Positions 3,293 to 52,988 of a DNA stretch of 64,000 nucleotides are shown piece by piece. Where the stretch lies: IMG/VR virus record IMGVR_UViG_3300033121_002286, one strand, 5' to 3'. A program made the position numbers and the translations under genes. The DNA is from an uncultured virus (IMG/VR IMGVR_UViG_3300033121_002286) (taxonomy: Duplodnaviria > Heunggongvirae > Uroviricota > Caudoviricetes). The notes under the pieces are model-generated. The model ran no database searches and was not told the DNA's origin. It saw only the letters and a list, made by a program, of their open reading frames with translations. Numbering within the stretch: position 1 is the first letter of the stretch; each line of letters begins with the position of its first letter.

Positions 3293-3300
3293 TATATTTG
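3293..3300 (+). promoter_or_regulatory. Bacteroidota sigma70 -7 element (TAnnTTTG)
   Basis: TATATTTG 22 nt upstream of infC. Same element upstream of genes/operons at 35045 (+) and 4583, 10946, 24513, 27495, 31995, 43303, 47605, 48885, 56008, 61345 (-). Confidence 0.7.
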
Positions 3301-3322
3301 TATAAAACAATATTAACAACAC

Positions 3323-18820: not shown

Positions 18821-18821
18821 T

Positions 18822-20156: not shown

Positions 20157-22403
20157 TTATGATTTTTCTTTATTTTTAATAATTACAACCTCTTCCTTAA
20201 CATAATCAATAGTAAATGAATCTCCTGGTTTTATTTTTTTCTCTAACATTGCTTTCGCAATTGTATTTTGAACATATGTTGTAATTGCTCTATGAACAGG
20301 ACGAACGCCAAACTCCTCCGAATAACCCTCCTCTGAAATAAAGTCCCTAATTGATTTTGTTGCTTTTACTTTATATCCAAGATCTTTTACTACATTCAAA
20401 AATTTATCTAAGTGTAAATCTGTTATTTTTGATATATTTTCTTTGGATAGTGTATTAAAAATAATCTGTTCATCAATTCTGTTTAATGTCTCTTTTCTAA
20501 ACACTTTTCCCAAAGCCTTGTCAATAATTGCCTTTGTATGCAACACGTCTTTAGTGCTATTTTTAGTAAATCCAACAGGTGAACTTTCACTCAATTCTTT
20601 TGTTCCAGCATTTGAAGTCATAATAATTATTGTGTTTTTAAAATTAATTACATGCCCTTCCGAATCAGTTAGCCTACCCTCATCTAATATTTGAAGTAAA
20701 ATATTTGTGATATTTGGATGTGCCTTTTCAATTTCATCAAACAACACAACACTATATGGTTTATTTCTAACCAACTCTGTTAATTGATTTGAATTTTCCC
20801 CATATCCTACAAATGAAGGGGGCGCTCCGATTATTTTTGTTATTGTATGCGCTTCCATAAATTCACTCATATCCAATTTAATAAGAGCAGACTCATCGTT
20901 AAATAAATACTCTGCTAATGCCTTTGCTAATTCCGTTTTGCCAACACCACTACTACCGAGAAATAAAAAATTTCCCAATGGTTTACGTGGATTACTTAAT
21001 CCAGTTCTGCTTCTTTGGATTACTTGACTAACTTTTGTAACAGCTTCATCTTGGCCTATAACTCTTTTCTTTAACTCCTCTTCCATTTTTAATAATTTGG
21101 TCCATTCATCTTGACCAATTTTTGTAACAGGAATACCAGTCATTTTGCCAACAACTTTTGCAATAATATCTACTGTGATTGGAATTTTATGAAGTTTCTG
21201 TTCCTCTTTCCATCTCAATTTAAATTCTTCAATTTTAGGAACCAATTCTTTTTCTTTGTCTCTTATCTTTGCAGCCTTTTCGTATTCTTGGCCTTTAACA
21301 ACTTTGTTTTTTTCATTCTTTAATTCAACAAGCTGTTTTTCCAAACCTTCAAGCTCCTTTGGAATAATGATGTTATCCAAATGTGCTCTTGCGCCAGCCT
21401 CATCAATGATATCTATTGATTTGTCCGGTTGAAAACGGTTTGTAATAAACCTGTCTGCAAAATCCACAGCTGCATCAATGGTTTCATCATCAAACTTTAC
21501 ATTATGAAAGTCCTCATATATATTTTTGATTTGTTTTAAAATTAATTTGGTTTCTTCTATTGAAGGTTCTGGGACCAAAATCTTTTGGAAACGTCTTTCC
21601 ATTGCTCCATCCTTTTCAATAGACTTTTTATATTCCTCAATAGTTGTTGCACCTATCACTTGCATTAAACCCCTGGCAAGAGCTGGCTTTATCATGTTTG
21701 ACACATCAAGAGCACCCATGGAATTACCGGCACCAATAATTGTGTGTAATTCATCTATAAAAAGAATGACATCAGGATTGTCTTCTATTTCATCCATGAT
21801 AGCCTTCATCCTCTCTTCAAATTGACCTCTGTATTTTGTTCCAGCAACAATCAAAGACAAATCAAGAGTAACTAATCTTTTACCATGTAATACAACACTA
21901 GTTTTTTTCTCTATGATTTTTTTTGCCAAACCTTCAACAATTGCCGTCTTACCAGTATTATGAGAAAAAATACCATTACTTTCATAGATGTGAGAGTCAG
22001 ATAAAACCTCTAAGTCATATGTGTCGTGAACTCCTATATTACTTATAGATAACACTTTAGAATCTCCATCTTTAGTGCAAACATAATCTCCAATATTTAT
22101 GTTTTTTAATCTAATAAAAAAGTTCCCATCTAAAAACTCTGATTTACCCACAATAAATTCAGGGACTTTAACAAGATGATCTTCAGAAGCTTTTAGACTC
22201 AAGCCATTATCTAACTTTATTTTTACACATGATTTTTCTGTTTTTAAATACAAATCACCAACTTCTTGAAAGCCGTTTTCTGTTAATATTTCATATTTCC
22301 CACCTTCTTTTAAAGTCAATTCAAAAAATTCTTTAATTGTTATTTTTTTTTCAACAAAAAATTCTTTAGTTTGTTCTTCTATTTCTAATAATTCGGAGTT
22401 CAT
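20157..22403 (-). CDS. clpC: ClpC-type AAA+ chaperone, C-terminal part, preceded by split-intein C fragment (149 aa, 21957..22403)
   Basis: Intein block B ASEDH, block F/G TYDLEV..NGIFSHN then TGKT; AGTKYRGQFEER, LFIDELH, UVR EYEKAAKIRD, GSSGVGKT, LFDEIEKAHP, PVGF loop. Confidence 0.93.
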   Translation of the reverse strand: MNSELLEIEEQTKEFFVEKKITIKEFFELTLKEGGKYEILTENGFQEVGDLYLKTEKSCVKIKLDNGLSLKASEDHLVKVPEFIVGKSEFLDGNFFIRLKNINIGDYVCTKDGDSKVLSISNIGVHDTYDLEVLSDSHIYESNGIFSHNTGKTAIVEGLAKKIIEKKTSVVLHGKRLVTLDLSLIVAGTKYRGQFEERMKAIMDEIEDNPDVILFIDELHTIIGAGNSMGALDVSNMIKPALARGLMQVIGATTIEEYKKSIEKDGAMERRFQKILVPEPSIEETKLILKQIKNIYEDFHNVKFDDETIDAAVDFADRFITNRFQPDKSIDIIDEAGARAHLDNIIIPKELEGLEKQLVELKNEKNKVVKGQEYEKAAKIRDKEKELVPKIEEFKLRWKEEQKLHKIPITVDIIAKVVGKMTGIPVTKIGQDEWTKLLKMEEELKKRVIGQDEAVTKVSQVIQRSRTGLSNPRKPLGNFLFLGSSGVGKTELAKALAEYLFNDESALIKLDMSEFMEAHTITKIIGAPPSFVGYGENSNQLTELVRNKPYSVVLFDEIEKAHPNITNILLQILDEGRLTDSEGHVINFKNTIIIMTSNAGTKELSESSPVGFTKNSTKDVLHTKAIIDKALGKVFRKETLNRIDEQIIFNTLSKENISKITDLHLDKFLNVVKDLGYKVKATKSIRDFISEEGYSEEFGVRPVHRAITTYVQNTIAKAMLEKKIKPGDSFTIDYVKEEVVIIKNKEKS

Positions 22404-27516: not shown

Positions 27517-28521
27517 TCACTTAGGGAAATTAGACCACTTTAATTCATTGCTTTTCCACTTAAAATAATCATCAACAGCGTTTTTGCCAGAATTTATTAA
27601 AAAATCTATTTTTTCTTTTGACAATTTAAATTCGGTGGTACCAACATTTCCACTATCAATAAAAACAGTTCTATTCCAGTCATTATTATTTAAATGCTTT
27701 TTATTTACCATTTCCAATGTGAAATTAGCTAAAGTAACAATAAAATTTTTAAGACTTTTTGTTGAATGGGGGTCTACTTCCCAGGATGCAGACTCCTTTA
27801 AATAATTTTTTTCATCTTTTGAATCTACTCTAAAACCTAATGTTTCATAATTAAATGCGTAATCAGGATCATAATCTGAATATGCAAAAATAGCATTGTC
27901 TGGATTATATACATATTTTCTGTTGTCAAATAATTGTATTGGATAATTAGAAGTTAGTCCACCATCAACATAGTAATCATCATTTTCTTTTATACTTGTA
28001 AAAAATATTGGTATACTCATAGACATTCTTACTGCTTTATATATTGGAAGATCGGGATGATTTTCAAAAGATATTGCTTCTGCTTTTTGTTTTGTTACAT
28101 TGGTTGTTACCACATACAAGTCCTTGTATCCTGGTTCTTTTTTCTGAATTTTATTATTTAAATCCCTAAATGTAAAATTTCTATTTCCAGTCTTTTTCTC
28201 AATTAAGTCACCCAACCACTTTTCAAATGTATCACCCTTATTCCATCCATAATATTTTAAAAGTCTAATAATATCTCTAATAAATAAAAATGTATTGTCT
28301 TCAAATTTTTTAAAACTTGTTTCTGCAACAATATTTAAAATGTCATTTGAAGAATATCCAACCGCAATCAAACATGCTGTAATCGCTCCTGCAGAGGTTC
28401 CAGCAACACGAGTTAACCCTGAAATAATTCCAAGCTCATCAAGTTTTAAAAGAGAACCACCGTAAGCAATCCCCTTTACACCACCCCCTTCTAGAACTAA
28501 ATTTTTATAATTTAAATTCAT
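27517..28521 (-). CDS. patatin-like phospholipase
   Basis: EGGGVKG, GTSAG, DGG. Confidence 0.93.
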   Translation of the reverse strand: MNLNYKNLVLEGGGVKGIAYGGSLLKLDELGIISGLTRVAGTSAGAITACLIAVGYSSNDILNIVAETSFKKFEDNTFLFIRDIIRLLKYYGWNKGDTFEKWLGDLIEKKTGNRNFTFRDLNNKIQKKEPGYKDLYVVTTNVTKQKAEAISFENHPDLPIYKAVRMSMSIPIFFTSIKENDDYYVDGGLTSNYPIQLFDNRKYVYNPDNAIFAYSDYDPDYAFNYETLGFRVDSKDEKNYLKESASWEVDPHSTKSLKNFIVTLANFTLEMVNKKHLNNNDWNRTVFIDSGNVGTTEFKLSKEKIDFLINSGKNAVDDYFKWKSNELKWSNFPK

Positions 28522-35077: not shown

Positions 35078-35926
35078 ATGTACAACGATATTCTCATTTT
35101 TAAAAACAACAGCTTATTAATTGAATATTATAGCAATGAATCAAAGCAAAAAGAGATTGATGAAGTAGATCCTGATTTTTTTTACACACTTTATGATTGC
35201 AAGGTTGTGTTTGATAAAAGCCTAACAGTAGAAGGCTTTTTAATGGCATTAAAACCATTTATAGAAATTATAGAATTTCATTTTGCATCTTATCTGGAAG
35301 GTGTTGAATTAAAGCCCTATTATAAGTTACTAAAAAAGAAGCCCGAAATAATTAAAGGCAATAAAAGTAAAATTGAATATATAGAAATGTATTGGGTTTG
35401 TGAGATTTTTCAATTTTTTGATGAGTTGGAAAACAAACATGTTAGTGAGTTTGAAAAATATGGAAACTATCACGGGGTTTCTGATGATGAAGGGGAGTAT
35501 TTTGGAATGGGACTTACACCTTTAAATAATTGGAAACACTATAATTTAAAACTTAACCCAAAATTAGAATGCTATTTGAATGGAGAGGGTGTCGTTCAAG
35601 CTAAATTGTTTGAGGCTGAGTTACAATGGTCCCTGCACGATGTGATTCGATATTTCTTTTATGAACTAACATTTTTGGGATCTGTTGAAGATAGTGAGGC
35701 TTTTAGAGAGGATATGGATAGAAGAATAGAGGAGGTTAGAAATGGAGGAGCGGAGATTGGTAAAACTTATAATTTAGATGATTTAAAATCAGAATATGAA
35801 TTAGAAACACTCACAAGACAATTAAATTCTGCCGTAGAAAAAGAAGATTATGAAATAGCTCAAAGACTAAAAGAAAAAATTGACAGGCTTAATTCTGAAA
35901 ATAAAAATTCAAAGCCCAAAAGCTGA
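35078..35926 (+). CDS. protein with C-terminal UvrB/UvrC (UVR) motif
   Basis: LNSAVEKEDYEIAQRLKEKI. Confidence 0.75.
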   Translation: MYNDILIFKNNSLLIEYYSNESKQKEIDEVDPDFFYTLYDCKVVFDKSLTVEGFLMALKPFIEIIEFHFASYLEGVELKPYYKLLKKKPEIIKGNKSKIEYIEMYWVCEIFQFFDELENKHVSEFEKYGNYHGVSDDEGEYFGMGLTPLNNWKHYNLKLNPKLECYLNGEGVVQAKLFEAELQWSLHDVIRYFFYELTFLGSVEDSEAFREDMDRRIEEVRNGGAEIGKTYNLDDLKSEYELETLTRQLNSAVEKEDYEIAQRLKEKIDRLNSENKNSKPKS

Positions 35927-36226
35927 ATTGTCAAAATCCTTATCTAACTTAAAAATAATTGGAGTTGGATCTGGACCAATAGGATCAACACCGCAAGTCA
36001 TCATACCTGTAGAACAAATTGTAAAATTTAAATTAACAAATTGAGGTTGATCTTTAGATATTTTAAGAGTTGTGAAAATCAAAGATTTTTCCTCAATATT
36101 TTTTTCAGCATACCTTTCAGACTCAACAGTGTCAAATTCTAAAATAATTTCTTTTGGTGTGTTTGATATATGTTTAATTTGCCTGATCCAATCATGTACA
36201 CTAATTTCACAAATCAATTGATCCAT
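35909..36226 (-). CDS. EF-ERY module fused to tail-sheath-like C-terminal fragment
   Basis: LEFDTVESERY; TLKISKDQPQFVNLNFTICSTG. Confidence 0.55.
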   Translation of the reverse strand: MDQLICEISVHDWIRQIKHISNTPKEIILEFDTVESERYAEKNIEEKSLIFTTLKISKDQPQFVNLNFTICSTGMMTCGVDPIGPDPTPIIFKLDKDFDNSAFGL

Positions 36227-36605
36227 AATAATTTTTTTTTATTTTTTTATTTTTATATCTTCTTGAGATTTTTTTTCTTGGCTTAAAATCTGGTTCACTT
36301 ATCCAAACAGCTGGTGTTACATACGTAGGGATATATGGTGCCCAAACATAACCGGCATCAAACCACGACTTATTTTCTATAAGTCTTTCACAATACCTTT
36401 CTTCATCAATAGAATCAAACTCCAAAAGTAGTTCTGGTACAGATACAGAATAATAAAACAGAGTTCCACCGCTAGAATATATATTCACATGTTGTTTTGG
36501 TTCTTCTGCCATTTGCAGGCCTCCCCAAAACTCAGCTTCTTTTTCTGCTTGTGGAAATTTATAATTGTTTGACTTTTTTATCTTTTTTTTCATGTGAATT
36601 TTCAC
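36207..36605 (-). CDS. EF-ERY module fused to major-capsid (gp23-like) fragment
   Basis: LEFDSIDEERY; FDAGYVWAPYIPTYVTP..PDFKPRKKISRRY. Confidence 0.7.
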   Translation of the reverse strand: MKIHMKKKIKKSNNYKFPQAEKEAEFWGGLQMAEEPKQHVNIYSSGGTLFYYSVSVPELLLEFDSIDEERYCERLIENKSWFDAGYVWAPYIPTYVTPAVWISEPDFKPRKKISRRYKNKKIKKNYYGSIDL

Positions 36606-36817
36606 CTTTCTATATAAAATACTTCTGGTATCTCTAGGTTTGGTATTTTAAGGGATGCGTACATCTTCTTTTTCATTTCATATATAAGATCCTCAATTTC
36701 ACTTCCGGTCATACCATGTATACTAATTTCAAGAATTCTTCTAATATGTCTTCCATCACCATATCTTTCAATATCAACAGGTTCAAATTCAATTAATATT
36801 TTTCTTTGATTACTCAT
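36602..36817 (-). CDS. EF-ERY module fused to portal (gp20-like) fragments
   Basis: IEFEPVDIERY; RRILEISIHGMTGSEIEDLIYEMKKKMYASLKIP. Confidence 0.55.
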   Translation of the reverse strand: MSNQRKILIEFEPVDIERYGDGRHIRRILEISIHGMTGSEIEDLIYEMKKKMYASLKIPNLEIPEVFYIER

Positions 36818-36992
36818 TCCAATTCTAAATTAAATAGACTTCTCATTATCTCTATGTCAATTTCTTCTGCCAACGCCTGTGATAATAAACCAACAAGCGA
36901 CTCTTCAGCATCCCACCATTCAATCCATTTTTACCATATCTTTCAATATCAACAGGTTCAAATTCAAGTAATAAAACACCAGACGCTTTCAT
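36814..36992 (-). pseudogene. EF-ERY module fused to second major-capsid-like fragment; 1-nt frameshift in an A5 run (possible assembly error)
   Basis: LEFEPVDIERYGK / WDAEESLVGLLSQALAEEIDIEIMRSL; corrected frame ends in ATGA overlap with next gene; 35 bp identical between 36758..36792 and 36933..36967. Confidence 0.6.
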
Positions 36993-37205
36993 GATCATAA
37001 ATATAATAATTAAAAATTAGAAAAAAAACACTAAAAATGTTTCCGAACTGGTTAAAAACAAATCTGAGCAAGTAATATTTGCTGGTAAAGTAGGCAGAGT
37101 TAATATTTAATTAAATCTAAAATGTTTAAAAAAACAATAATTTCGAATGTTTTTATAATATAAAATTTACATAAAAAATTTTTAAGATTAGTTTCATATT
37201 TAGTT

Positions 37206-37619
37206 GTGAAAACAAAAAACATGAAAAAGACATTTAGAATAGCAATTATAATAATTTTAACAGCCCTTTCAATTGCCGCAATGGGTGTTCATTTGTTTAG
37301 CAAACCACATCAAGATATAAGCAATGAAACCCCAGCGTTATCAATTAATTCTAGTTTATTGGTGGCAGACTTTGAAGGAGATGAGAATATAGCCAACTCA
37401 AAATACTTGGGGAAAATAATAGAAGTAACTGGCACAATCACTGAAAAAGATAGTGTAAGTATAATATTAAAAGCCACTGATTTGTCCGGTGTTAACTGTG
37501 CTATGGACAAAAATTATAAAATAGATCATTTAAAAGAGGGACAACAAGTTAAAATAAAAGGAATTTGCACCGGGATATTAATGGACGTTGTTTTGGTGGA
37601 TTGTGTTATAGAAAATTAA
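37206..37619 (+). CDS. membrane-anchored OB-fold protein (tRNA_anti-like)
   Basis: TM helix, ANSKYLGKIIEVTGTI, LKEGQQVKIKGICTG. Confidence 0.75.
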   Translation: MKTKNMKKTFRIAIIIILTALSIAAMGVHLFSKPHQDISNETPALSINSSLLVADFEGDENIANSKYLGKIIEVTGTITEKDSVSIILKATDLSGVNCAMDKNYKIDHLKEGQQVKIKGICTGILMDVVLVDCVIEN

Positions 37620-37622: not shown

Positions 37623-38498
37623 TCAAAGTTCTGGAACTTTGTAGTCAGACCAATATTTATATAATCTTTTTGTGATATTTTTTTTCATTATATCCGTTAG
37701 CTGCTTCCAACCTTCAAATCTATATTTGAAATCCTTATAAACTTCATCAAATGGTTTTTTATAAGCTTCAGTATAAGAGTTATCCTTAAATTTATCAAAA
37801 TGAATTTTGTTAATTGCCTGAGTCATCCTAGCGTTAATTTCATGCGGCAACCTCCAATAAGACAAAAACATATCAGCATCTTTTTCTAAGGTTTTTTCTT
37901 CTTTTGAATAGTTTACAAATTTATTCTGAAATTTATTCCATCTTTTGGAGTTTAAATATTTTCCCCCAGATCTGTAATCATCATAGGCGTGTCTTAGTTC
38001 ATGCAATAGTGTATCGTGAAATTTATAATACAATTTAAAATAAATGTCATCAGATTTTGGCTCCATGGGTTTGTCAAAAAGCATGTATTTTCTATTTAAC
38101 ATTAAATAAATATCTAATAGATCATCCATTTCGTAAACCAGGAAAATAGAATGCGGTCTGACATACCAACCTTTACTTGTTGTGGAGTCTGTCATCTTTT
38201 TTTCAGAAGATGTTAAATAAACAGAAATGTTGTTCTCTTCAATCCACCTTTGAAAAACTTCTGGCAATGAACTTAAATCCAAAACCCCTTTATAAAAATT
38301 AAAATCTCCTTCATATAAAACAAACCTTTTCTTACCATCACTTTCTGTTTGAGCATATATTTTGCTCCTTTGCTTCTTAAATAGTTCTTCAGCAATGTAT
38401 TTCAACATTAAAGTTGTGAGATTATTTAGGCTTTTTTCATCCTCTAAACCCTCTTTAATTAAATCCCTTACAAACCTTCTGATCTCATGGAGTTCCAT
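37623..38498 (-). CDS. putative zincin-type HExxH protein with IRRFVRDLIKE leader
   Basis: LLHELRHAYD..Y..PHEINAR; start reassigned to MELHEI after TATTTAT. Confidence 0.65.
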   Translation of the reverse strand: MELHEIRRFVRDLIKEGLEDEKSLNNLTTLMLKYIAEELFKKQRSKIYAQTESDGKKRFVLYEGDFNFYKGVLDLSSLPEVFQRWIEENNISVYLTSSEKKMTDSTTSKGWYVRPHSIFLVYEMDDLLDIYLMLNRKYMLFDKPMEPKSDDIYFKLYYKFHDTLLHELRHAYDDYRSGGKYLNSKRWNKFQNKFVNYSKEEKTLEKDADMFLSYWRLPHEINARMTQAINKIHFDKFKDNSYTEAYKKPFDEVYKDFKYRFEGWKQLTDIMKKNITKRLYKYWSDYKVPEL

Positions 38499-38571
38499 GG
38501 AAATAAATAGCTGTAGAAAAATACTGCGGGAATGATTTTCGAATTTTTCAGCATATTTATTTCGAAAAGAT

Positions 38572-39156
38572 ATGGCACAAAAAATACGCAAATTAGATTC
38601 TCCACAATCTGCTGGTGGCAGAGCAACTGCAATTATTTTAAGAAAAAAAGCATTAGAATCATATTATAGCAACCCATCAATTTGTAAACAATGCTCAAAA
38701 ATAATTACAGTTCAAGACAATCAAAAAGTTCCAGATGTAAGGAGAAAAAAGTTTTGTAGTCAATCATGTTCTGCTTCACATAACAACTCCATAAGAGAAA
38801 GAAAAATAAAATTAAAAGTTTTAAAAGAAAAAAAAATAATTGATAAATTTAATTGTTTAAAGAATATTTCTAAAAAAGAAATGTTCGATAAATGTCCAAA
38901 TTACCAATCAGCCAGAGCGAGGATTCAAAAACACGCAAGATATATATACTCAATTTCAAACAAACCAGAGTGTTGTTCCGAATGTGGATATGATAAACAC
39001 TATGAAGTCTGCCATATAAAACCGGTTTCTAAATTTAGTGATGAATCATTAATAATTGAAAATATAAATAACATTAATAATTTAATAGCGTTTTGCCCAA
39101 CACATCATTGGGAATTTGACAATGGTATTTTAAAAATAAAAACCTCCAATAGATAA
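38572..39156 (+). CDS. HNH endonuclease with N-terminal Zn-binding motif
   Basis: CKQC..FCSQSC; CSECG..EVCHIKP..NLIAFCPTHHWEFD. Confidence 0.85.
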   Translation: MAQKIRKLDSPQSAGGRATAIILRKKALESYYSNPSICKQCSKIITVQDNQKVPDVRRKKFCSQSCSASHNNSIRERKIKLKVLKEKKIIDKFNCLKNISKKEMFDKCPNYQSARARIQKHARYIYSISNKPECCSECGYDKHYEVCHIKPVSKFSDESLIIENINNINNLIAFCPTHHWEFDNGILKIKTSNR

Positions 39157-42283: not shown

Positions 42284-42601
42284 TTAATTTTCATCCAAAA
42301 ATTTATTCCAACTTTTAATCAACCCTTCTATATTCTCCTTTCCAACCCCATTTGCAGAATGAACATTTACAATCATTCCTCTGAGATCAAATTGCTTTTC
42401 ATTAATTAACCACTTAACACAATCTATTCCATCTTTTCCTTCTCCGGCCCCAAGATCATGATCAAAGGAGCATTCTACTGGCACTCCGAAGTTTTCAATC
42501 GTTGAGATGAAATCTTCATAACTACGAACTACAACCCAAGGTCCGGGAGTTTTTGGATTTCTTTCGTCATCCAAATATAATTTATAGTTTTTAAATTTCA
42601 T
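42284..42601 (-). CDS. cyclic-phosphate-processing receiver-like domain protein
   Basis: LYLDDERNP, VVRSY, SFDHDLG, HSANGVG. Confidence 0.75.
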   Translation of the reverse strand: MKFKNYKLYLDDERNPKTPGPWVVVRSYEDFISTIENFGVPVECSFDHDLGAGEGKDGIDCVKWLINEKQFDLRGMIVNVHSANGVGKENIEGLIKSWNKFLDEN

Positions 42602-42619
42602 AGTTTAACAATTTATTAG

Positions 42620-42706
42620 AGGAAAGCGAAGGAACCGACCCCTTACCAGCTCATCACTGATACCATAGTTTTCAAGACTATTTGTACTCCATGTACGGCG
42701 CTTTCC
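42620..42706 (-). tRNA. tRNA-Ser(TGA), possible 8/4 acceptor/T-stem fold
   Basis: GGAAAGCG/CGCTTTCC 8 bp; ATAGT-CTTGAAA-ACTAT; T loop GTCGGTT. Confidence 0.8.
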
Positions 42707-42715
42707 CTGTTTTTG

Positions 42716-42789
42716 TGGACCCCCTGGGAATTGAACCCAAACCCGCAGTTTTTCAGACTGCTGTGCACACCAAATTACACCAAAGGTCC
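42716..42789 (-). tRNA. tRNA-Phe(GAA)
   Basis: GGACCTT/GGGGTCC-A; GCAGT-CTGAAAA-ACTGC. Confidence 0.9.
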
Positions 42790-42802
42790 ATAATAAAAGT
42801 TA

Positions 42803-42874
42803 TCTCAGCCAGCACGGTTAGCGCACGTAGCCGCCTTGTTTTTCCCATTGTTTGGCGCATATGGGTACTGAGCA
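42803..42874 (-). ncRNA. unidentified GC-rich structured RNA between tRNA-Met and tRNA-Phe
   Basis: Closing stem CTCAGT/GCTGAG; CCCAT/ATGGG hairpin whose loop CGCC can pair with downstream GGCG. Confidence 0.5.
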
Positions 42875-42883
42875 TCACCTTTG

Positions 42884-42987
42884 TAACGGAGGCGAGAATC
42901 GAACTCGCATTCTCTTTCGAGATCGGGTTTATGAGACCCGGCTGGACTTCATTTGTGTGAAGCTTGCCATTTCCAGTCCACTCCGCA
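42884..42987 (-). tRNA. tRNA-Met(CAT), 104 nt, extra D-loop hairpin and long variable arm
   Basis: TGCGGAG/CTCCGTT-A; CGGGT-CTCATAA-ACCCG; CTTCA-CACAAA-TGAAG insert; TCTC-GAAA-GAGA. Confidence 0.8.
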
Positions 42988-43054
42988 ATATATATTTTAT
43001 GTTGTACTGTTAGTTGGTAATGATGTTGTAGTATTAGTTGGTAATGATGTTGTA

Positions 43055-43087
43055 AACAAAAAAGCCCCGGAGATTATCCAGGGCTTC
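43055..43087 (-). terminator. attenuator terminator of the Met/Phe/Ser tRNA operon
   Basis: AAGCCCTGGA-TAATC-TCCGGGGCTT-TTTT; 5' arm complementary to CCAGGGTTC (43139..43147) in the leader. Confidence 0.85.
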
Positions 43088-43113
43088 TTTTACTTTTTGG
43101 TTTCTTTATATAT

Positions 43114-43221
43114 TCAACTTAGAAACTTATAGGCAATAGAACCCTGGCTCGTCATTTTACTAAATGACGAGAAGAAGCTTTTTGATTTGCTTACTGAGTT
43201 CATATTTGTTACAAGTTGCAT
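43114..43221 (-). CDS. Ser/Phe/Met-rich leader peptide MQLVTNMNSVSKSKSFFSSFSKMTSQGSIAYKFLS
   Basis: 35 aa with 10 Ser, 4 Phe, 3 Met, between promoter (43303) and terminator. Confidence 0.85.
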   Translation of the reverse strand: MQLVTNMNSVSKSKSFFSSFSKMTSQGSIAYKFLS

Positions 43222-43376
43222 TGAAGACTTTTTATTGATTTTGTTAATGTAAATATGCAGAAAAATTTTTTCTGCAGAATTTTTTATTATTTGTTTAGAC
43301 TGCAAACATACATTAGTAATCTGCAGTTTGCAAACATTTTCTAATTTATTTTAATTTAAACACTGTAACTTGTTGA

Positions 43377-43643
43377 TTAGCAAGTTGATATTTTAGAATT
43401 AATAATAAACTCATGCTCTGTAATTATGCATTTTATTTTTTTATCAAACACCGTATCATATTTCATGAATGCTTCTACATGCTCTTTCAATTCAAACCTT
43501 TGTGCTTGTAGAGGATCTCTTGTCCAGGATGGAAATAATTCTATGTTAAAATCATGAGCATAAATTCCTTCTACCGGAGTTCTGTTTAAATAATACCACT
43601 CATGAGTGTCTGTTCTTTCTATAAAATAATAATATTGCTTCAT
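43377..43643 (-). CDS. hypothetical protein
   Basis: 88-aa ORF; WTRDP..A..F, ITEHEF. Confidence 0.6.
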   Translation of the reverse strand: MKQYYYFIERTDTHEWYYLNRTPVEGIYAHDFNIELFPSWTRDPLQAQRFELKEHVEAFMKYDTVFDKKIKCIITEHEFIINSKISTC

Positions 43644-43712
43644 ATGTAGAGAACGCTGAAGCGTGACAAAATCTATAACGTGTTTTTGCTAATTTTTAAT
43701 TTATCTTGAAAT

Positions 43713-45125
43713 CCACCTTCTTTGAAGGTGGTAATATCCTTATGGTTTTGCTTGGAATTAATAAAAAACAAATTAACCAAAAATATTTGTGGTTAAAATA
43801 ATTTTTTCATATATTTATACTTAGAAATTAAAAATGCTTAAAACTTATAAATATAGAATTTCGCCAACCCAAAAGCAAAAACTGCTCTTGGAAAAGCATT
43901 TTGGTGCTGTTCGGTTTGTTTATAATTTAGCACTGGAGACAAAAACAATAGCTTATTCTTCTATTAAATACAACATATCTAGATATGAACTTCAAGAACA
44001 ACTGCGTGATTTAAAAGAAGGATATGAATGGCTGAAAGAAATAAACAGTCAGTCTTTGCAATTCTCTTTACTTAACTTAGATGTAGCTTACACAAACTTT
44101 TTTAAAGGCAGGGCAAAGTTTCCAAATTTTAAAAACAAATATTCTTCTAAACATAGTTTTCATTGTCCACAAAATATTGCCATTGAAAATGGTTTGATAA
44201 CTTTACCGAAATTTAAAGAGGGAATAAAAATAAAATTGCATAGAAAATTTTTTGGAGAAATAAGAAATGCCACGGTAAGCAAAACCTCAACAAATAAATA
44301 TTTTGTATCCATTTTAGTGGATACAAAAGAGAGCACTCCAGATAAACTTTTAATCGAAAAGCAAACAGCAGTTGGAATAGATATGGGAGTTAAAATCTTT
44401 GCCACGTTGTCAAATGGAGAAGATATTCCCAATTCGACTTTTTTAAAATCTTCATTGCAAAGACTAAAAGTTTTGCAAAGGAGATTATCCAAAAAGAAAA
44501 AGGGAAGTGCAAACAGAAAAAAATCAACATTAAAATTAGCGAAGCAACATGAAAAAATAGCAAACCGAAGAAAAGATTTTCTTCACAAAACAACAAATGC
44601 GATAACCAAGCAATATAATACAGTTGTTATTGAAGACTTGAATATAAAAGGAATGAGTGCAAAGTGCAAATCTCAAAAAGATGAGAATGGAAAATACATT
44701 CACAACGGACAGTCAGCAAAGACAGGATTGAACAGATCTATTCTCGATGCTGGCTGGGGCATGTTTGCAGAATTTCTGAAATATAAATGCGAGTGGCGTG
44801 GAAAGAATTTTATCCAAATTGGAAGATTCGAACCTTCTAGTAAAATACACAATGGGTGTGGTTATTATAACCACTCTTTAACTTTACAAGAGAGAGAATG
44901 GATATGTCCAAAATGTGGTAAGTTGGTTGACAGGGAAAAAAACGCAGCATTAAACATATTAGATTTTGGATTAAATCCAAAGCAAAAACAAAAAGATTCA
45001 GGTGTGGAACGCACCGTTGAGCCTGTGGAGTTGCCGACAATGGTTAGGACTGTGAAGCAGGAAAAATTTATGGTTAAGTCTTGTACTTAATTATAATACT
45101 ACCTGCTTTGCAGGTGGTTGTTCAC
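43713..45125 (+). mobile_element. IS200/IS605-family (IS1341-like, TnpB-only) element
   Basis: Hairpins CCACCTTC-TTT-GAAGGTGG (43713..43731) and ACTACCTGC-TTT-GCAGGTGGT (45098..45118) then TGTTCAC; no tnpA; left boundary uncertain. Confidence 0.7.
43834..45090 (+). CDS. tnpB: RNA-guided endonuclease TnpB family protein
   Basis: YKYRISPT..FG.VRFVYN, VGIDMG, VVIEDL, SSK..CG..WICPKCG..DREKNAALNI. Confidence 0.93.
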   Translation: MLKTYKYRISPTQKQKLLLEKHFGAVRFVYNLALETKTIAYSSIKYNISRYELQEQLRDLKEGYEWLKEINSQSLQFSLLNLDVAYTNFFKGRAKFPNFKNKYSSKHSFHCPQNIAIENGLITLPKFKEGIKIKLHRKFFGEIRNATVSKTSTNKYFVSILVDTKESTPDKLLIEKQTAVGIDMGVKIFATLSNGEDIPNSTFLKSSLQRLKVLQRRLSKKKKGSANRKKSTLKLAKQHEKIANRRKDFLHKTTNAITKQYNTVVIEDLNIKGMSAKCKSQKDENGKYIHNGQSAKTGLNRSILDAGWGMFAEFLKYKCEWRGKNFIQIGRFEPSSKIHNGCGYYNHSLTLQEREWICPKCGKLVDREKNAALNILDFGLNPKQKQKDSGVERTVEPVELPTMVRTVKQEKFMVKSCT

Positions 45126-45136
45126 TAAAATTACTG

Positions 45137-45190
45137 ATATTTATTTAAATATCTATATTTATTTAAATATCTATATTTATTTAAATATCT
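45137..45190 (+). repeat. three exact tandem 18-bp repeats ATATTTATTTAAATATCT
   Basis: Copies at 45137, 45155, 45173, each containing TATTTAT. Confidence 0.9.
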
Positions 45191-45199
45191 AAGTAAAAT

Positions 45200-46786
45200 A
45201 TGAAAAATTTAATAAAAACACTCCGTATAAAAATTAAAAATCAATTAAGGGAAAACCTTGAGGATGAAATTGAAAATAAGTGGATAAGTATTTGTTCTAA
45301 GCACAAAGAATATGAACCAGGATGCAGTCTTTGCAATAAAAAAGTAAGATTAAGTGAAGATTTTGAAAGGAATAAAATAATTGCCGGGGAAATAATCAAG
45401 CAACTTGGTGGATTTGGTAAATTAAAATCAATGACCGGTGCTCACACTTTCGTAGCTCACGAAAGTGGGGTTTCTTTTAAAATAAAAAATCCAAAAGCAA
45501 ATTATATCAAAATAATATTAAATGGGAATGATAATTATGATGTGGAAGTTGGAAGAATAAGAGGAATGGATTATAAAGTTTTGGTTAGTGAAACAGATAT
45601 TCCTGCTGAAGGTTTAAAAAATTTAATTGAAAAAAGCACAGGTATGTATCTTTCTTTGTTTGAAAATGGGGTGAATGCTTTATGGAGAAAAGATTTTGAA
45701 AACCAAATAAAACCGGAAGAAGAACGGGATAAAACTTCTGAAATTGAATCAGAAATAGAAATGAGAATGAGTCCTTCTTGGGACGCACTTCCATACTCTG
45801 AAATAAATGAAATAGCCGAAACCTACGGGGTTGACTTTGAAGATGTTTTAAATATAATGCAATCTTATTTAATCAAAAGAAACAATGAGAGAGTTTCTGA
45901 TTTAAAATATTGGGTTAAAGAATTGTTGGATCAATTTGAAAATTCGGGAAACGATAATCCTTCTTGGCAAGAGTTTTATTTAATGTGGACAAAAGAAGGT
46001 TTTCAACATGAAAATTCTTGGGCAACAGAAGGTGATGTAGAAACGGAATACAAAAAACAAACTTCAGATCCAAACCAACTTTCTCTATTTGAAAATTTAA
46101 TAAAAAATTACTTAATAAAAGAATTATATGATAACTTCGGAGATGAGGGATCTCAACCTGGAGATGCTGAATATCATCATGATATGGGACACAATAAAGC
46201 CAATAATGGTAGAGATGTATTTGCCAATATAGATTGGAAAGTATTTTGGGAAACCCTTATAAACAACACAGAAATAACTAAAGATAAAACAAGAGAAGGT
46301 ATTACATATAATGTTTCTGATTTAACAGATGATGATGGGTTTTTAAGCTTTGATAGTTTGAAACATTTGGAAGATTATGGTTTAATTTATAATTGGGATG
46401 GCATTCCTATTATTGATGAACCTGAATATTTAGATTTCAATAAATTTTATAATAAAGCAAAAGAAATTTGGCTTAAAGATGTTAGGGTAAAAAATGACCC
46501 ATCACACGAACCATCTCCTTATTATAGAGGCAATGAAGATTCAATGCTTGAGAATGATTTGCCAGGAGAAAATATAGAATATGAAGTCAAATATGATAAA
46601 TTGGTTGATGGGGAGTACGAACCAAGCAAAGCGTTTTTTAAAGATTTAAAAATGGCAATAATGTTCGCCAAAGAAAAATATGCGGCAATAAGATATACCA
46701 AAACACTTTCAGATGGAAGAGAGGAAACTGGCTATGTTAACGTATCAGATCCTTCTTATCCTTTAATACCTGATAAAAGATTTTAA
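45200..46786 (+). CDS. acidic multi-module hypothetical protein with internal LxE linkers
   Basis: LRE, LSE, LFE, IKE, MLE boundaries; IIKQLGG..MTGA module; DPNQLSLFE. Confidence 0.7.
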   Translation: MKNLIKTLRIKIKNQLRENLEDEIENKWISICSKHKEYEPGCSLCNKKVRLSEDFERNKIIAGEIIKQLGGFGKLKSMTGAHTFVAHESGVSFKIKNPKANYIKIILNGNDNYDVEVGRIRGMDYKVLVSETDIPAEGLKNLIEKSTGMYLSLFENGVNALWRKDFENQIKPEEERDKTSEIESEIEMRMSPSWDALPYSEINEIAETYGVDFEDVLNIMQSYLIKRNNERVSDLKYWVKELLDQFENSGNDNPSWQEFYLMWTKEGFQHENSWATEGDVETEYKKQTSDPNQLSLFENLIKNYLIKELYDNFGDEGSQPGDAEYHHDMGHNKANNGRDVFANIDWKVFWETLINNTEITKDKTREGITYNVSDLTDDDGFLSFDSLKHLEDYGLIYNWDGIPIIDEPEYLDFNKFYNKAKEIWLKDVRVKNDPSHEPSPYYRGNEDSMLENDLPGENIEYEVKYDKLVDGEYEPSKAFFKDLKMAIMFAKEKYAAIRYTKTLSDGREETGYVNVSDPSYPLIPDKRF

Positions 46787-46968
46787 AAACTATTCTTCGA
46801 TAATAGAACAATTATCTTTTCTGACTCTTACAGTTTCTTTCCTTTCTCTTTTGGGATCATAATATTCTCCAATATAAGAGTCTGAATTTTCCTTTAATAC
46901 ATTAACAATTCCATCTTTTGGGACCATCAAAGCATCCCTGTTGTTTTTAAGCTTAACTTTCATTTCTT

Positions 46969-47598
46969 TCATTTTATGTTTATTAATTTTTCAATAAAGT
47001 TTAAATCATTTTTTCTTTTTTGCATATATTTTTCATACATGAATTTTCCGTAATTGGTCATGGGTTTCATTCCCTCAATAAATTTAACATATAACATGGG
47101 AGAAGTTTTAAAATTTAAATTCATTTCCTGAGAAAGGCCATAAAAAACCTGTTGCAAATAATTATTTTCATACCATTGCATCAAATCACAGTCTCTAATT
47201 ATTTTTTGCTCTAAAAAAAGTTCATTTTCAGAAATAACATAAGGGTATTGTGTGGCCTTTATTATTTCAACTATTTTTTCTGAATCAATTTCAGATTCAA
47301 CACTATATTTCCAAAAAGAAGAAATGGAATTTTTTACATTCACATCATCAGTAAATTTCCCGGCAGAATGGTTGAAGTCATGGAACAAAGCAGCGATTAG
47401 CAAAAGTCTTGTTTTCTTTTTTTCTAATCTTTCTTTTTTAGAGGCTCTGTAACAATTTGTAAAAACTGTGAGTATATGGTAATTATTGTGATATGGATTT
47501 GTTGCGCCTGTATTTTCAGTAAGTAAAATATGAAAATAAAACTCCAATTTAAAAATTTGGATTATTCTTAAATACTCACTAACAATTAGTTTTTTCAT
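46969..47598 (-). CDS. HD-domain phosphohydrolase / PDEase-like protein
   Basis: NPYHNNYH, AALFHDFNHS, IRDCDL; start reassigned to MKKLIV after TAnnTTTG at 47605. Confidence 0.85.
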   Translation of the reverse strand: MKKLIVSEYLRIIQIFKLEFYFHILLTENTGATNPYHNNYHILTVFTNCYRASKKERLEKKKTRLLLIAALFHDFNHSAGKFTDDVNVKNSISSFWKYSVESEIDSEKIVEIIKATQYPYVISENELFLEQKIIRDCDLMQWYENNYLQQVFYGLSQEMNLNFKTSPMLYVKFIEGMKPMTNYGKFMYEKYMQKRKNDLNFIEKLINIK

Positions 47599-47626
47599 CA
47601 GGATCAAAGATACAAATTTTAAAATT

Positions 47627-47663
47627 AAAAAACCCCGAAAAACTAGGTTCTTCAGGGTTTTTT
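47627..47663. terminator. intrinsic terminator closing the large ncRNA transcript
   Basis: AAAAAACCCCGAA..TTCAGGGTTTTTT. Confidence 0.8.
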
Positions 47664-47669
47664 GATGCC

Positions 47670-48660
47670 AACTAGGTTTTTCCTTTATGATAGAAGTTTT
47701 TATGTCTTCTAAGTTGGTCTTGGTAATGTCGTTAAAATAGTCTGAGACTACAACTATTTTTTGAGAGTCTCTGAGAGCATTATACCTTTTGGGCTTCTCT
47801 CTTTTATCCACAGATATTTCTACCTGTATCTCTCATCCTCAATGTTTCGAAATCAGCGAACTGACTTCCGGATATCAACCGTATCGTGTGCGATATTCGA
47901 CAAACTATTCCATCGTCAAGGCTTGCATAACCCTGGTGCGACAGCTTCATCTATCAAACTATCCATGCTTGGAGAGCGAAGATAGCACTCTGTTACATTA
48001 TCCACTCCGAAGAGTGGCAAGCGGTCAGAGCTTTAGAGGACTTTGTTCAACACACGTTACCAGACTTTCTCTTGTATAATGTATATGTTATAATAGAGAT
48101 TATACCTAAACCGAGCATTGGAAGACGAGCTGGTAAGTGAAGTTCCCTGGCTTTTGACCAGCGAATGCTTCTCGCCTTCCTGTGAGACTGCGAATCTCAC
48201 CACAACATAACGATCAACCACCTCAGTACTTTAATTGTTTTTTGCAACCAAAGCCAACTCATCGTTTAATTGTTTGCACAACCAACTGCATAAGCAGTGA
48301 ATGAGAAGTTCGACCTATATATTGTTGGCCAATGCATTTGTCATGTTGCACATAACTTACACATTATTTAAATACGATTTTTTGAACCGCATATAAACCA
48401 CACTCCATGTCTGAAGCATGAACGCCCTGACTTTCTCCTGTTGTCTGTTAAAACTCAACAACCGTCTCGGAACGATTGTCTGGTGTTTTTGAAACACACC
48501 AGGTACTAATCAGTGTTTGGGTGTTCTCCGCCATGCGGAGCGTATCTGCCTGCCCCTCTAAAACATGCTTTCACACATTAAGAGGTAAAGGTATATCAAC
48601 GACAGATACCTATAGTCCCATTGCTGGGGTTTACCTTAAGGGTGCCAAACCACCCTATAA
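47670..48660 (-). ncRNA. large (~1 kb) structured ncRNA, GOLLD-like candidate
   Basis: No credible ORF, raised GC, many hairpins (CCACTC-TTCG-GAGTGG, GTGAGATT-CGC-AGTCTCAC, CTGGTGT..ACACCAG); bounded by promoter, tRNA-like gene, boxA and terminator; family identity unverified. Confidence 0.7.
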
Positions 48661-50693: not shown

Positions 50694-51179
50694 TTATTGA
50701 ATTATTTGGATATTATCTTTATCGAAAACACCAATTGATTCAACATCTCTTTCTAATTCTTCAGCAATTAATATTGAATCAAACCCATTTGAAATAGCAC
50801 AATAATAAGCATCATCACAAGTCCAATAAGGTAGTTCTTTATAAAATTGTTCATCCAATATTTCATCAATTTCTTCATTAGTTTTACCATCATTTTTCAA
50901 ATAATCTATAAATAATTCAAAATGATTTTTATTTGAAGTATCGAAAGTGTTGTGAATATTTAATTTTACCTTATAAATATATTTACCATAAGTTTTAGCA
51001 TAGTCCAAATTTTTAGTAAAAAACCAGACAGGTAAATCAATTTCCATATATGTTTTATTATATACTAAATCAAACATATCAAATTTATTATTTGAACCGT
51101 GATACCAAATATCGTTGGAATAATTCTCATTCAAATATTCTCTAATAGTGGTTGCTATAAACTTTCTCAAATCTTTCAT
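50694..51179 (-). CDS. cassette 3: ADP-ribosyltransferase-like protein with LRKFIATTIREYLNE leader
   Basis: WYHGS..F..F, WFFT..YA..YG, GFDSI, E.IGVF. Confidence 0.65.
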   Translation of the reverse strand: MKDLRKFIATTIREYLNENYSNDIWYHGSNNKFDMFDLVYNKTYMEIDLPVWFFTKNLDYAKTYGKYIYKVKLNIHNTFDTSNKNHFELFIDYLKNDGKTNEEIDEILDEQFYKELPYWTCDDAYYCAISNGFDSILIAEELERDVESIGVFDKDNIQIIQ

Positions 51180-51286
51180 TTTTTCTTTTATATATAAATA
51201 TTCAATTTTAAAATATCCACCCTAAAATTCTTTTTATTTTTCTTTCGTGTTTCAAATTAAGTTTAGTGGTTAATAAGTCGGCACAA

Positions 51287-51418
51287 GAGCATAACAAGGT
51301 GTATATGTAATGTGAGTTTCAGTTGTATATTGAACATTTGTTCTTCTAATTAAGTTTATCTGTAATTGAAAGTTCAGTTATTCTAATCTCACACTACATA
51401 TACACCCAACCGTTAGGC
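51287..51418. repeat. attC-like site 3
   Basis: GCATAAC-AA-GGTGTATATGTA.TGTGAG..CTCACA.TACATATACACC-CAACC-GTTAGGC. Confidence 0.8.
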
Positions 51419-51552
51419 ACAATGCAAGTGCGTAACCCGAAGGAAATCTTCTTTGTCTATTGAAATAAACTTATCTGTTATTCCTTTCACAAATTCTTGA
51501 TATTCTTTTTCGTATTTCATTTTTTTATTCGTATAAAATTTTTAAAACTAAA

Positions 51553-51606
51553 ACATAACAGCAAATAAAACACTTTAAAACGATGTTTTATTTGCAACCG
51601 TTATAT
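51553..51606. repeat. attC-like site 4 (short)
   Basis: ACATAAC-A-GCAAATAAAACA..TGTTTTATTTGC-AACC-GTTATAT. Confidence 0.75.
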
Positions 51607-51610
51607 GGTA

Positions 51611-51817
51611 TTAAGAAGACCCGTAGTGAAAACTTGACCAACAATCATATTCCGAGTTCCATCTAAAACCAAGTTCACATAATTTATCCTTATCTTCTTT
51701 CGACACTTCCTCTTCTGTAATTCCAACCACCATAAGTATATCGTGTTCACAATTCGTTGGGTAAGTTTCGTTTTTGTACTTTAAGAAAATTTGTAATGCT
51801 TCAATTAACTTTTCCAT
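51611..51817 (-). CDS. cassette 5 hypothetical phage protein
   Basis: MEKLIEALQIFLKY..PTNCEHD..LGF..SFHYGS. Confidence 0.7.
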   Translation of the reverse strand: MEKLIEALQIFLKYKNETYPTNCEHDILMVVGITEEEVSKEDKDKLCELGFRWNSEYDCWSSFHYGSS

Positions 51818-51856
51818 TTTGCTTTGAAATTTAACTGCACACAACAAGTGTGGTGA

Positions 51857-52090
51857 TTAATTTTTATTTTTTAATTTACATTCGTGCTTTATAAAACTGC
51901 AGCAAATCCATTCAATAAATCTACCAAGCCAACCGATACATTCTCCACATTTTTGACAACAATAACTTGGATATTTAGATTTAAATGTTTTACAATTTCT
52001 ACACAATGAGTTTGGCTGTCTCAAATCACAAACAACACCCATTCCTGGATTTATTGCTTTATTGTGAATACATTTTAATTCTCTTTTCAT
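51857..52090 (-). CDS. small Cys-rich hypothetical protein
   Basis: Multiple CxxC motifs. Confidence 0.6.
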   Translation of the reverse strand: MKRELKCIHNKAINPGMGVVCDLRQPNSLCRNCKTFKSKYPSYCCQKCGECIGWLGRFIEWICCSFIKHECKLKNKN

Positions 52091-52425
52091 ATCATATTAT
52101 TTTTGGCTGATACTGCCAAAGAAATTCTTTTTTGAACCTCTGCATAATGTTGCATATATTCATCTTTTGTGATTTCAAACCACTCTTCTTCAATATCATC
52201 ATCCCATTTCTTAGGATTAAAATAACCATAATATTCTATATCAAAGTGAGAAGTTTCATTACCCTCCCAATAACCCAAACGCAACATCATTGGTTCGCAC
52301 CTTTCTTCGTCTGTTGAATAAACAAACAACTTCGTAACACTCCACCAATATTTTCCAGCCAAAAAGCGTTTTTCTTATTCTGTACTTTCCTGTTAGCTTC
52401 CTCATGTTGTTTATCTTTTTAATTT

Positions 52426-52953
52426 TTAATTTATCGTTATATATTTTATTGGAACACTGTCTGTCAAATAAACGTTGTTGTTTGATTTATAAAAGGTAAA
52501 ACCATCATTATTCATTTGAACGGCATCTATTTTTAAAACGACAGGCGATCCATGTCGCTTACCAACATTGATAGCTGTTTCAAGATTATCAGACAAATGT
52601 ACGTGATTTCTTGATTGTTTGGTTAGACCTAAATCCATAATTGATCCAAGAAAGCGATGTGCGGTTCCATGATACAAAAAACCGGAAGGAATAAATGGTT
52701 GGAGTTCCACATCCACTTCTACACTATGCCCCTGCCTGGCTCTTATTCTTTGTTGATGCTGGTCAAACTCAAACCTTTTTTTATCATTAGTTTCAACAAT
52801 TTCATCAAGTTCTGTTTTTTTTATTTTTAAAATTTTTAAAATGTCAGAAACATTTGCCCAACCCTTATCACTTAAAACTATCCCAACAGATTCGGGGTCA
52901 TGCCTTAAAATTTTTGATAAAAATTTGCTTTGCCTTTGTAATTCTTTTCTCAT
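52426..52953 (-). CDS. kptA: RNA 2'-phosphotransferase Tpt1/KptA
   Basis: SKFLSKILRHDP, NDKKRF, IRARQGHS, LYHGT, RNHVHLS, VGKRHG. Confidence 0.95.
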   Translation of the reverse strand: MRKELQRQSKFLSKILRHDPESVGIVLSDKGWANVSDILKILKIKKTELDEIVETNDKKRFEFDQHQQRIRARQGHSVEVDVELQPFIPSGFLYHGTAHRFLGSIMDLGLTKQSRNHVHLSDNLETAINVGKRHGSPVVLKIDAVQMNNDGFTFYKSNNNVYLTDSVPIKYITIN

Positions 52954-52961: not shown

Positions 52962-52988
52962 AAACGGTTAAAAGTTATAAAAGTTACA
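52962..52988 (-). promoter_or_regulatory. ECF-sigma-type promoter TGTAAC-N16-CGTTT
   Basis: Exact motif 8 nt upstream of the kptA start. Confidence 0.7.

Follow-up and report, generated by a model that had tools for sequence, protein, structure and literature searches.

The Lit/EF-Tu exclusion is a host defence that reads a short linear piece of the phage T4 head protein gp23, the Gol region, and not the folded protein. For the internal proteins of T4, head-protein segments are not known to be part of the sequence. In T-even phages, internal proteins are described as diverse anti-restriction proteins with a conserved targeting peptide that is removed by a protease (PMC3012670, PMC9026906), and many defence systems are described as sensing the capsid, the portal and other core phage proteins (PMC13728456; bioRxiv 10.64898/2026.01.04.697583). 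The answers of phages to sensors of structural proteins, beyond point mutation, are largely open, and in the parts of the literature that were searched no phage-encoded excerpts of head proteins on a shared handle are described.

Here, a DNA stretch of 64,000 nucleotides (nt) from an uncultured virus (IMG/VR record IMGVR_UViG_3300033121_002286), called the window in the following, was analysed with respect to an array of four mini-genes, g1 to g4 (Table 1), whose predicted products belong to an undescribed family of small phage proteins. Each of them joins one copy of a conserved module of 18 amino acids (aa) to a different short tail. The tails of g2 and g4 resemble two different blocks of gp23-type capsid proteins, and the tail of g3 probably derives from a portal protein. 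The reading favoured here, with a probability of roughly 35%, is that of molecular mimicry of head-protein contact segments, which would be used in conflict.

Shared module of the mini-genes

In agreement with the original prediction, which had been made from the DNA letters and proposed four tandem mini-genes with an EF-ERY motif, g1 to g4 are open reading frames (ORFs) on the same strand with one motif copy each. The module around this motif has the consensus pelLLEFepvDiERYGdk, and when all six frames of the complete window were scanned with the pattern [LIVMF]EF[DE]x[VIL][DE]x[ED]RY, four matches resulted, all of them in g1 to g4. At the DNA level the four copies belong to a single 41-nt repeat family with 100, 98, 71 and 68% identity, g3 and g4 being the pair that shares the 35 identical base pairs noticed before. 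Because the differences among the copies are largely found at third codon positions, the module is conserved at the protein level. Its position is variable: it is N-terminal in g3 and g4 only, begins at residue 28 in g1 and at residue 60 in g2, and is internal in at least six of 12 aligned copies, including those of g1, g2, the proteins P0003 and P0004 and one ORF at the locus L084.

In the hhalign comparison of the g2 family with 26 capsid proteins, the alignment covers only the columns after the module. Hidden Markov models (HMMs) of capsid, portal and intein sequences did not match the module, and an HMM built from the 12 module copies found no match in 80 T4-like capsid loci. Judged from these profile comparisons, the module is a separate element. 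Two origins were considered for it and rejected. For a derivation from the capsid protein, BLAST and MAFFT gave a hint, which was supported neither by hhalign nor by a search of the intact g4 allele with the capsid HMM. For a derivation from an intein C-terminus, an HMM of 13 intein C-termini was used, which at E ≤ 10 had no match in g1 to g4; it recovered the intein of the SNF2-family helicase of the window, a member of its training set, and the intein-like segment of the ClpB-like protein. The Pfam intein families had no match to the mini-proteins.

The start of the module bears on an alternative explanation, in which the mini-proteins are capsid cargo or docking adaptors. The module would then be an address and processing element, the proteins would be loaded into the prohead and possibly injected, and the excerpts would dock on the shell or the portal. 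The architecture is similar to that of the T-even internal proteins, in which a short conserved peptide is found on diverse, fast-evolving small proteins encoded in tandem (PMC3012670, PMC9026906), and the T4 prohead protease is described as cleaving after L/I-X-E (PMC9026906). In 11 of the 12 aligned copies, F is preceded by (I/L)(L/I)E at the start of the motif, and in g3, g4 and two ORFs of a relative contig described below this site lies 8-13 residues from the N-terminus. In T4, however, the conserved part precedes the cleavage site, whereas here it mostly follows the site and the preceding residues are not conserved. Furthermore, the L/I-X-E pattern is too short to count as evidence, and a prohead protease or scaffold gene of the phage is not in the window. 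Because the conserved part follows the (I/L)(L/I)E site and the module is often internal, capsid cargo was retained as a rival only and is considered unlikely.

Capsid-like tails of g2 and g4

For the analysis of the tails, HMMs were built from IMG/VR loci and searched against all 932 stop-to-stop segments of at least 30 aa in the six frames of the window. The capsid HMM (61 sequences, 500 positions) matched g2 with E = 4e-16 at positions 438-489 and the g4 tail with E = 7.5e-5 at positions 290-317, the next best segment having an E-value of 1.9. For g2, the g4 tail and g3, none of 3,000 shuffles equalled the real score. In a Pfam search with five mini-sequences, Gp23 (PF07068) was the sole family at E ≤ 0.1, with two matches at different places of the profile: residues 79-117 of g2 at positions 310-346 (E = 0.0036, 17.2 bits) and residues 7-34 of the g4 tail at positions 169-196 (E = 0.0017, 18.2 bits). 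Both scores are below the family cut-off of 24.4 bits, and by these alignments g2 and the g4 tail are fragments of the Gp23 family, not members with the HK97-fold core. The PHROGs database had three weak matches, to 'major head protein' for the g4 tail (E = 0.0058) and to families of unknown function for g2 and g3.

The gp23-like motif previously noticed in g2 was also recovered by hhalign, which aligned the g2 family with the 26 capsid proteins at a probability of 99.2% (E = 1.6e-19). A tblastn search of 50,697 phage records resulted in one match (E = 6), which is the major head protein from a member of the Kyanoviridae. According to BLASTP, the identity to this protein amounts to 29% for g2 (87 residues) and to 44% for the g4 tail (32 residues). 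For g4, the proposed resemblance of DAEESLVGLLSQALAEEIDIEIM to a capsid motif could be confirmed, but its placement in frame with the module could not: in the window it lies in the -1 frame behind a frameshift in a run of five A. About the first 25 residues of the 48-aa ORF of g4 are the real protein and the remainder is out of frame.

With g2 as the query, HMMER found 97 proteins at E ≤ 0.001 among 1.84 billion protein representatives. The long matches (350-670 aa) are gp23-type capsid proteins, on whose extreme C-terminus residues 78-131 of g2 align. In IMG/VR, 407 stretches encode relatives, and in 74 of the best 80 loci the match forms the end of an ORF with a length of 419 aa or more. Of the remaining six, five are shorter ORFs that reach the contig end and one has 260 aa. 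The tail of g2 corresponds to the C-terminal ~55 aa of a gp23-type capsid protein up to the natural end of the family, and its N-terminus is conserved and not capsid-like. Taken together, these comparisons identify the tails of g2 and g4 as two solid capsid excerpts. Word-based protein searches with g2 returned only g2 itself among proteins of similar length and nothing among longer ones. When the PDB was searched by sequence, no significant match was obtained for g1, g2, g3 or the tail of g4.

Two side observations were made in these searches. The capsid open frame of 260 aa (L081:895-1674) is not cut by the contig end, so that this capsid gene is interrupted upstream by a frameshift, an intron or another insertion. 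In addition, many short database proteins of 73-237 aa (such as P0005, P0007, P0009, P0010, P0022 and P0081) carry the C-terminal ~55 residues of the capsid protein behind unrelated N-termini and without the module. P0005, P0007 and P0010 are encoded on contigs of 546-1,469 nt. These proteins may be products of cut or frameshifted capsid genes or of further mini-genes.

Portal-like tail of g3 and the tail of g1

The portal HMM (43 sequences) had its top match in residues 39-60 of g3, a block of 22 residues, with 10.0 bits and E = 0.014, compared to 0.59 for the next best segment. The gp20-like character proposed for g3 is in this respect supported by a weak match above chance, but not by Pfam, where the portal family gp20 (PF07230) did not match g3 at E ≤ 0.1. 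The g3 tail is a probable portal excerpt. HMMs of the protease (49 sequences), adaptor (18), terminase (8) and sheath (6) found nothing below E = 0.2 among the window segments.

The proposal that g1 carries a sheath-like segment was not borne out: Pfam and PHROGs assigned no family, and the sheath HMM of six sequences scored -2.2 bits. The best score for the g1 tail as a sheath C-terminus, obtained with the homologue P0109, was 3.9 bits (E = 0.5) with this HMM of only six sequences, and the assignment is not significant. The alignments of g1 and P0109 always fall on the last ~35 positions of the sheath profile; a second gathering of sequences yielded two C-termini only. An assignment to the VQPM block of the capsid protein was rejected: pairwise BLAST gave E = 0.004, no HMM match was found and the hhalign probability was 0.4%. 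In the ESM Atlas, the top feature score for g1 was 0.75, which is below the level of a lead, and the Atlas model has a predicted local distance difference test (pLDDT) value of 0.52. PADLOC and NCBIfam assigned no families to the four mini-proteins. In total, significant matches to structural-protein profiles were obtained for two segments of capsid type, a weak one for a segment of portal type, and none for the sheath.

Occurrence of the module in other phages

Further EF-ERY fusions, the existence of which the original prediction had left to be checked, were found as ORFs on a relative contig and as metagenomic proteins. A degenerate DNA pattern of the module had two matches in IMG/VR, both on one contig of 37 kb with a G+C content of 29% (IMGVR_UViG_3300033121_002091). 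This contig encodes a T4-type terminase, a T4-type portal and three module ORFs, and is otherwise unrelated to the window. One of the three, of 91 aa, is located two genes downstream of the portal gene, and its tail matches positions 340-373 of the capsid HMM (20.9 bits, E = 7e-6), a 34-residue excerpt corresponding to the block around IHK..S...AN. The other two, of 88 and 110 aa, overlap each other, have UVR-like ends and adjoin an HNH gene. The portal gene of the relative (L083:619-5748) encodes 1,709 aa and contains three inteins at about positions 264, 316 and 341 of the portal HMM. Four metagenome matches to the module pattern were judged to be due to chance, as they occur in unrelated contexts with 38-68% G+C.

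Among the proteins, P0003 (165 aa; present on 10 contigs, which are up to 20 kb long) is 50% identical to g2 over g2 residues 8-130 (123 aa), the non-capsid N-terminus included, and both are intact. P0003, P0004, which has two modules in one ORF, P0006 and P0040 combine the module with the capsid C-terminal block. A profile of the module region detected 16 proteins at E ≤ 10 among 5,287 candidates. Three of these are g2 and g1 of the window and P0003; the other 13 comprise allelic series of the IMG/VR ORFs, three g1 homologues, P0113, which is of the capsid-C-terminus type, and P0112. The g1 homologues are 62-85% identical with an invariant core, g1 and P0111 sharing 62%. In total, at least eight tail types are found on the one handle, five of which resemble head proteins, one of them weakly, and the excerpts comprise 22-60 residues in most members. 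The 91-aa ORF has alleles in the database in which other sequence takes the place of the capsid-like block between the two retained flanks, a pattern like that of the strain variation described below.

Strain variation

The stretch occurs in 20 of 24 listed public runs from 10 studies, two of the runs being RNA libraries, and the samples are metagenomes from activated sludge, wastewater, rivers and digesters. For the analysis of strain variation, assembled contigs of four other runs (X2, X3, X4 and X17) were used. In X3, one contig spans positions 35904-36955. Within 35948-36086, in the g1 tail, it has 13 substitutions and four insertions or deletions (indels) of 6, 3, 3 and 12 nt, compared to one substitution in the ~870 nt outside of this patch. 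The frame of g1 is preserved, as are its 14 C-terminal residues. In X2, a single position distinguishes g1 to g3 from the window, apart from two differences that are seen on minority contigs only (36150, substitution; 36675, insertion of 1 nt), and the changes are found in the g4 tail, with 16 substitutions and a 12-nt insertion, as well as in the A-run, with a further substitution and one extra base. With these changes applied, g4 is a single intact ORF of 65 aa, whose tail scores 14.8 bits against the capsid block.

The substitutions are mostly transitions and affect all bases. A diversity-generating retroelement was rejected as the source of the tail variation, as the changes are not adenine-specific; no further search for such an element was made. 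Such a confined divergence between genomes that are otherwise nearly the same suggests the import of cassettes or a strong diversification at the site rather than drift.

These data also bear on the explanation that the mini-genes are by-products of recombination, in which fragments of head genes would be captured and shuffled by mobile elements, such as inteins and homing endonucleases, or by illegitimate recombination at the module and be transcribed without having a function. Mobile elements are abundant, with the SNF2 intein, the intein-like segment of the ClpB-like protein, HNH genes and TnpB in the window and three inteins in the portal gene of the relative. The portal-like block of g3 starts where the third of these inteins inserts (between positions 340 and 342 of the portal HMM), with a Thr at the junction, and this coincidence may indicate that at least the g3 excerpt was delivered by the traffic of inteins or endonucleases. 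The frameshift of g4 in the window, the nearly neutral changes in the g1 tail and the absence of a predicted fold would fit by-products as well. Neutral debris, however, would not be expected to remain open at 50% (g2 and P0003) or 62% (g1 and P0111) identity, and the chance that all four g1 indels keep the frame is about 1 in 81 for random lengths. The module is kept at the protein level with synonymous DNA changes in at least 12 copies, the intein C-terminus HMM misses all four mini-genes, and the overlaps of stop and start codons are retained. The ORFs kept open at 50-62% identity, the indels that preserve the frame and the conservation of the cores and the handle argue for g1 to g4 being selected genes and not debris. 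An origin as functionless by-products is regarded as quite improbable.

Organisation of the locus and its surroundings

The positions of the mini-genes and of other features of the window are listed in Table 1. As had been proposed, the genes overlap one another: the stop codon of the g4 tail frame (36814-36816) overlaps the g3 start as ATGA, g3 and g2 overlap by 4 nt, and g2 and g1 by 20 nt. The product of g2 has 132 aa with a GTG start and 128 aa with the ATG at 36593, which is the form in the protein database, encoded on a contig of 72,447 bases; as in this copy, the ATG is probably the start. The TATTTAT motif, behind which the genes were said to lie, is not enriched (11 matches compared to 7.9 expected). 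Scans called no convincing promoter or terminator around the array, and the T4 late-promoter word TATAAATA was not found directly upstream of it.

Table 1. Mini-genes, their parts and other features of the window; for the mini-genes, module and tail positions are given.
Feature	Position	Strand	Description
g1	35909-36226	minus	105 aa; module at 36110-36142; conserved tail core FVNLNFTICSTGMM..VDPI; strain-variable patch 35948-36086
g2	36207-36605	minus	module at 36393-36425; capsid C-terminal block at 36213-36371
g3	36602-36817	minus	71 aa; module at 36761-36793; portal-like block SEIEDLIYEMKKKMYASLKIPN at 36638-36703
g4, N-terminal part	36852-36998	minus	48-aa ORF; module at 36936-36968
g4, frameshift site	36928-36932	minus	A5 run; 1-nt shift compared to the intact allele of run X2
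g4, tail	36817-36930	minus, -1 frame	38 aa; capsid DAE...EIDxEI block at 36829-36912
AT-rich intergenic stretch upstream of g4	36999-37205	minus	presumed promoter site for the four-gene unit
Convergent neighbour	35078-35926	plus	282 aa; C-terminal UvrB/UvrC-type UVR motif (Pfam E = 3e-5), weak McsA-like match; 3' end overlaps the g1 3' end by 18 nt
Upstream neighbour	37206-37619	plus	137 aa; OB-fold (tRNA_anti-like), hydrophobic N-terminus, weak match to a superinfection-exclusion PHROG
Upstream neighbour	37623-38591	minus	322 aa; HELRH (HExxH-like) motif, weak DUF3920 match
ClpB-like AAA+ protein	20157-22403	minus	intein-like C-terminal splicing motif near the N-terminus (HMM E = 5e-5), residues 122-156 of the stop-to-stop segment 20160-22424, ending ...SHN
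Accessory cluster	42284-47811		cREC_REC (cyclic-phosphate-processing receiver domain), TnpB/IS605 OrfB, 528-aa protein (PHROG of unknown function), HD/phosphodiesterase-like protein
SNF2-family helicase	52984-55989	minus	1,001 aa; intein at residues 309-667 (Pfam Intein_splicing)
Cell-like genes unusual for phages	1333-3877, 18323-19955, 27517-28521, 50694-52953		glutamate-synthase domain, IF3, DHFR, DnaJ, patatin-like phospholipase, ART (polyvalent-protein type), Tpt1/KptA RNA 2'-phosphotransferase

The window has a G+C content of ~30% and reads as a part of a large phage genome. According to Pfam and PHROGs, the array is surrounded by accessory genes and not by head genes; further genes of the window encode a classic OB-fold SSB, a dUTPase, a NUDIX protein, HNH endonucleases, a TnpB-type protein and a peptidoglycan peptidase. 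At the DNA level, a 3-kb region had no match in the 50,697 phage records, and an exact 34-nt stretch of the region had none in IMG/VR, where no relatives of either flanking gene, of P0003 or of P0006 were found.

The surroundings bear on a further explanation, in which the mini-proteins regulate or assist the assembly of the heads of the phage itself. By covering for a time the corresponding surfaces of its capsid and portal subunits, the excerpts would serve as a chaperone or a timer, and the DnaJ and ClpB-type proteins of the phage may take part in this. The tails are taken from the most conserved segments of head proteins, DnaJ and a ClpB-like AAA+ protein are encoded in the window, the UVR motif of the convergent neighbour is accompanied by UVR-like ends in two module proteins of the relative contig, and one relative is encoded two genes downstream from a portal gene. 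From a core assembly factor, however, conservation and invariance would be expected, whereas the mini-genes are patchy, strain-variable and, in the case of g4, frameshifted in three of four sequences. Furthermore, the array is located among accessory genes, and the module is found in none of the 80 T4-like capsid loci. A role as assembly helpers is therefore rated as rather unlikely.

Proposed function

In the mechanism proposed here, the phage proteins, if translated, would consist of the conserved 18-residue handle and a short tail excerpted from a conserved segment of a T4-type head protein. Too short for the fold of the parent protein, the tails would act as molecular mimics and occupy the site of a partner which normally holds that capsid or portal segment, and the handle would either recruit a second factor shared by all of them or keep the proteins attached to each other. 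The setting would be one of conflict, in which either a host sensor of conserved head proteins is blocked or the head assembly of a rival phage is disturbed, and the strain-variable patches of the tails would be the specificity determinants. A role in conflict fits the conservation of small ORFs in other phages, the focus of the variation on the tails and the setting among accessory genes. Tentatively, the mini-genes may represent a widespread class of exchangeable mimic cassettes in large T4-type phages, taken from their most conserved virion proteins (capsid, portal and perhaps sheath) and directed against sensors or rivals, with tails that are swapped by recombination as in antigenic variation; this extension is doubtful.

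Several points weigh against mimicry in conflict. Concerning the locus itself, Pfam and PHROGs found no head or tail genes in the window, and the capsid, portal and sheath genes of the phage itself are not in it. The frame of g4 is shifted in three of the four sequences that cover the site (window, X3 and X4) and intact in X2; g4 may be dying in the window lineage. The substitutions in the g1 tail of X3 are non-synonymous in 10 and synonymous in three cases, which is about the neutral ratio, and relaxed constraint is possible for this reason. For transcription, the sole hint comes from the RNA library X17, in which three 151-nt contigs agree fully with portions of g1, of g2 and of the 3' end; it is a weak one, as a metatranscriptome library may contain DNA.

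Concerning the tails, the g1 tail has no structural-protein likeness in significant form, and in both L084 ORFs and in P0112 the module is joined to tails without such a likeness. Among the alleles of the 91-aa ORF (L083-type tail), the capsid likeness amounts to 20.4 bits in one case compared to 9.2 and 8.2 bits. AlphaFold2 predicted no confident fold for g2 (pLDDT 52.9 with an alignment of five rows). Concerning the sensors, a decoy that carries the trigger epitope would be expected to trigger the sensor unless it binds without activation, and most described sensors are reported to recognise conserved folds and not linear peptides (bioRxiv 10.64898/2026.01.04.697583).

Should mimicry in conflict apply, the mini-genes would represent a new kind of countermeasure or inter-phage weapon and would provide ready-made peptides marking those segments of head proteins that are read or contacted. 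Even as cargo or assembly helpers, they would be an example of gene birth from excerpts of essential genes with strain-specific cassettes, a mode absent from the parts of the literature that were searched.

Comparison with known systems

With the Gol region of gp23, the mini-genes would have in common that a short linear piece of a head protein matters; Gol differs in being part of the real capsid gene and in acting as a trigger instead of a countermeasure. The sole hint at a direct relation, the alignment of g1 with the VQPM block, is not significant. The internal proteins IPI-III and Alt of T4 share with the mini-proteins a short conserved peptide on diverse small proteins encoded next to each other, and possibly an L/I-X-E site (PMC3012670, PMC9026906). 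The module differs from this peptide in having 18 residues that are conserved mainly after the putative site, and in being often internal.

In comparison with the T4-type capsid proteins gp23 and gp24 (PF07068), the mini-proteins hold only one block of 28-60 out of ~376-500 profile positions, lack the HK97 fold and are unrelated in the remainder. They are nevertheless homologous to three different conserved blocks of these proteins, represented by the last ~55 residues of g2 and by stretches of 28 residues in the g4 tail and 34 residues in the 91-aa ORF of the relative.

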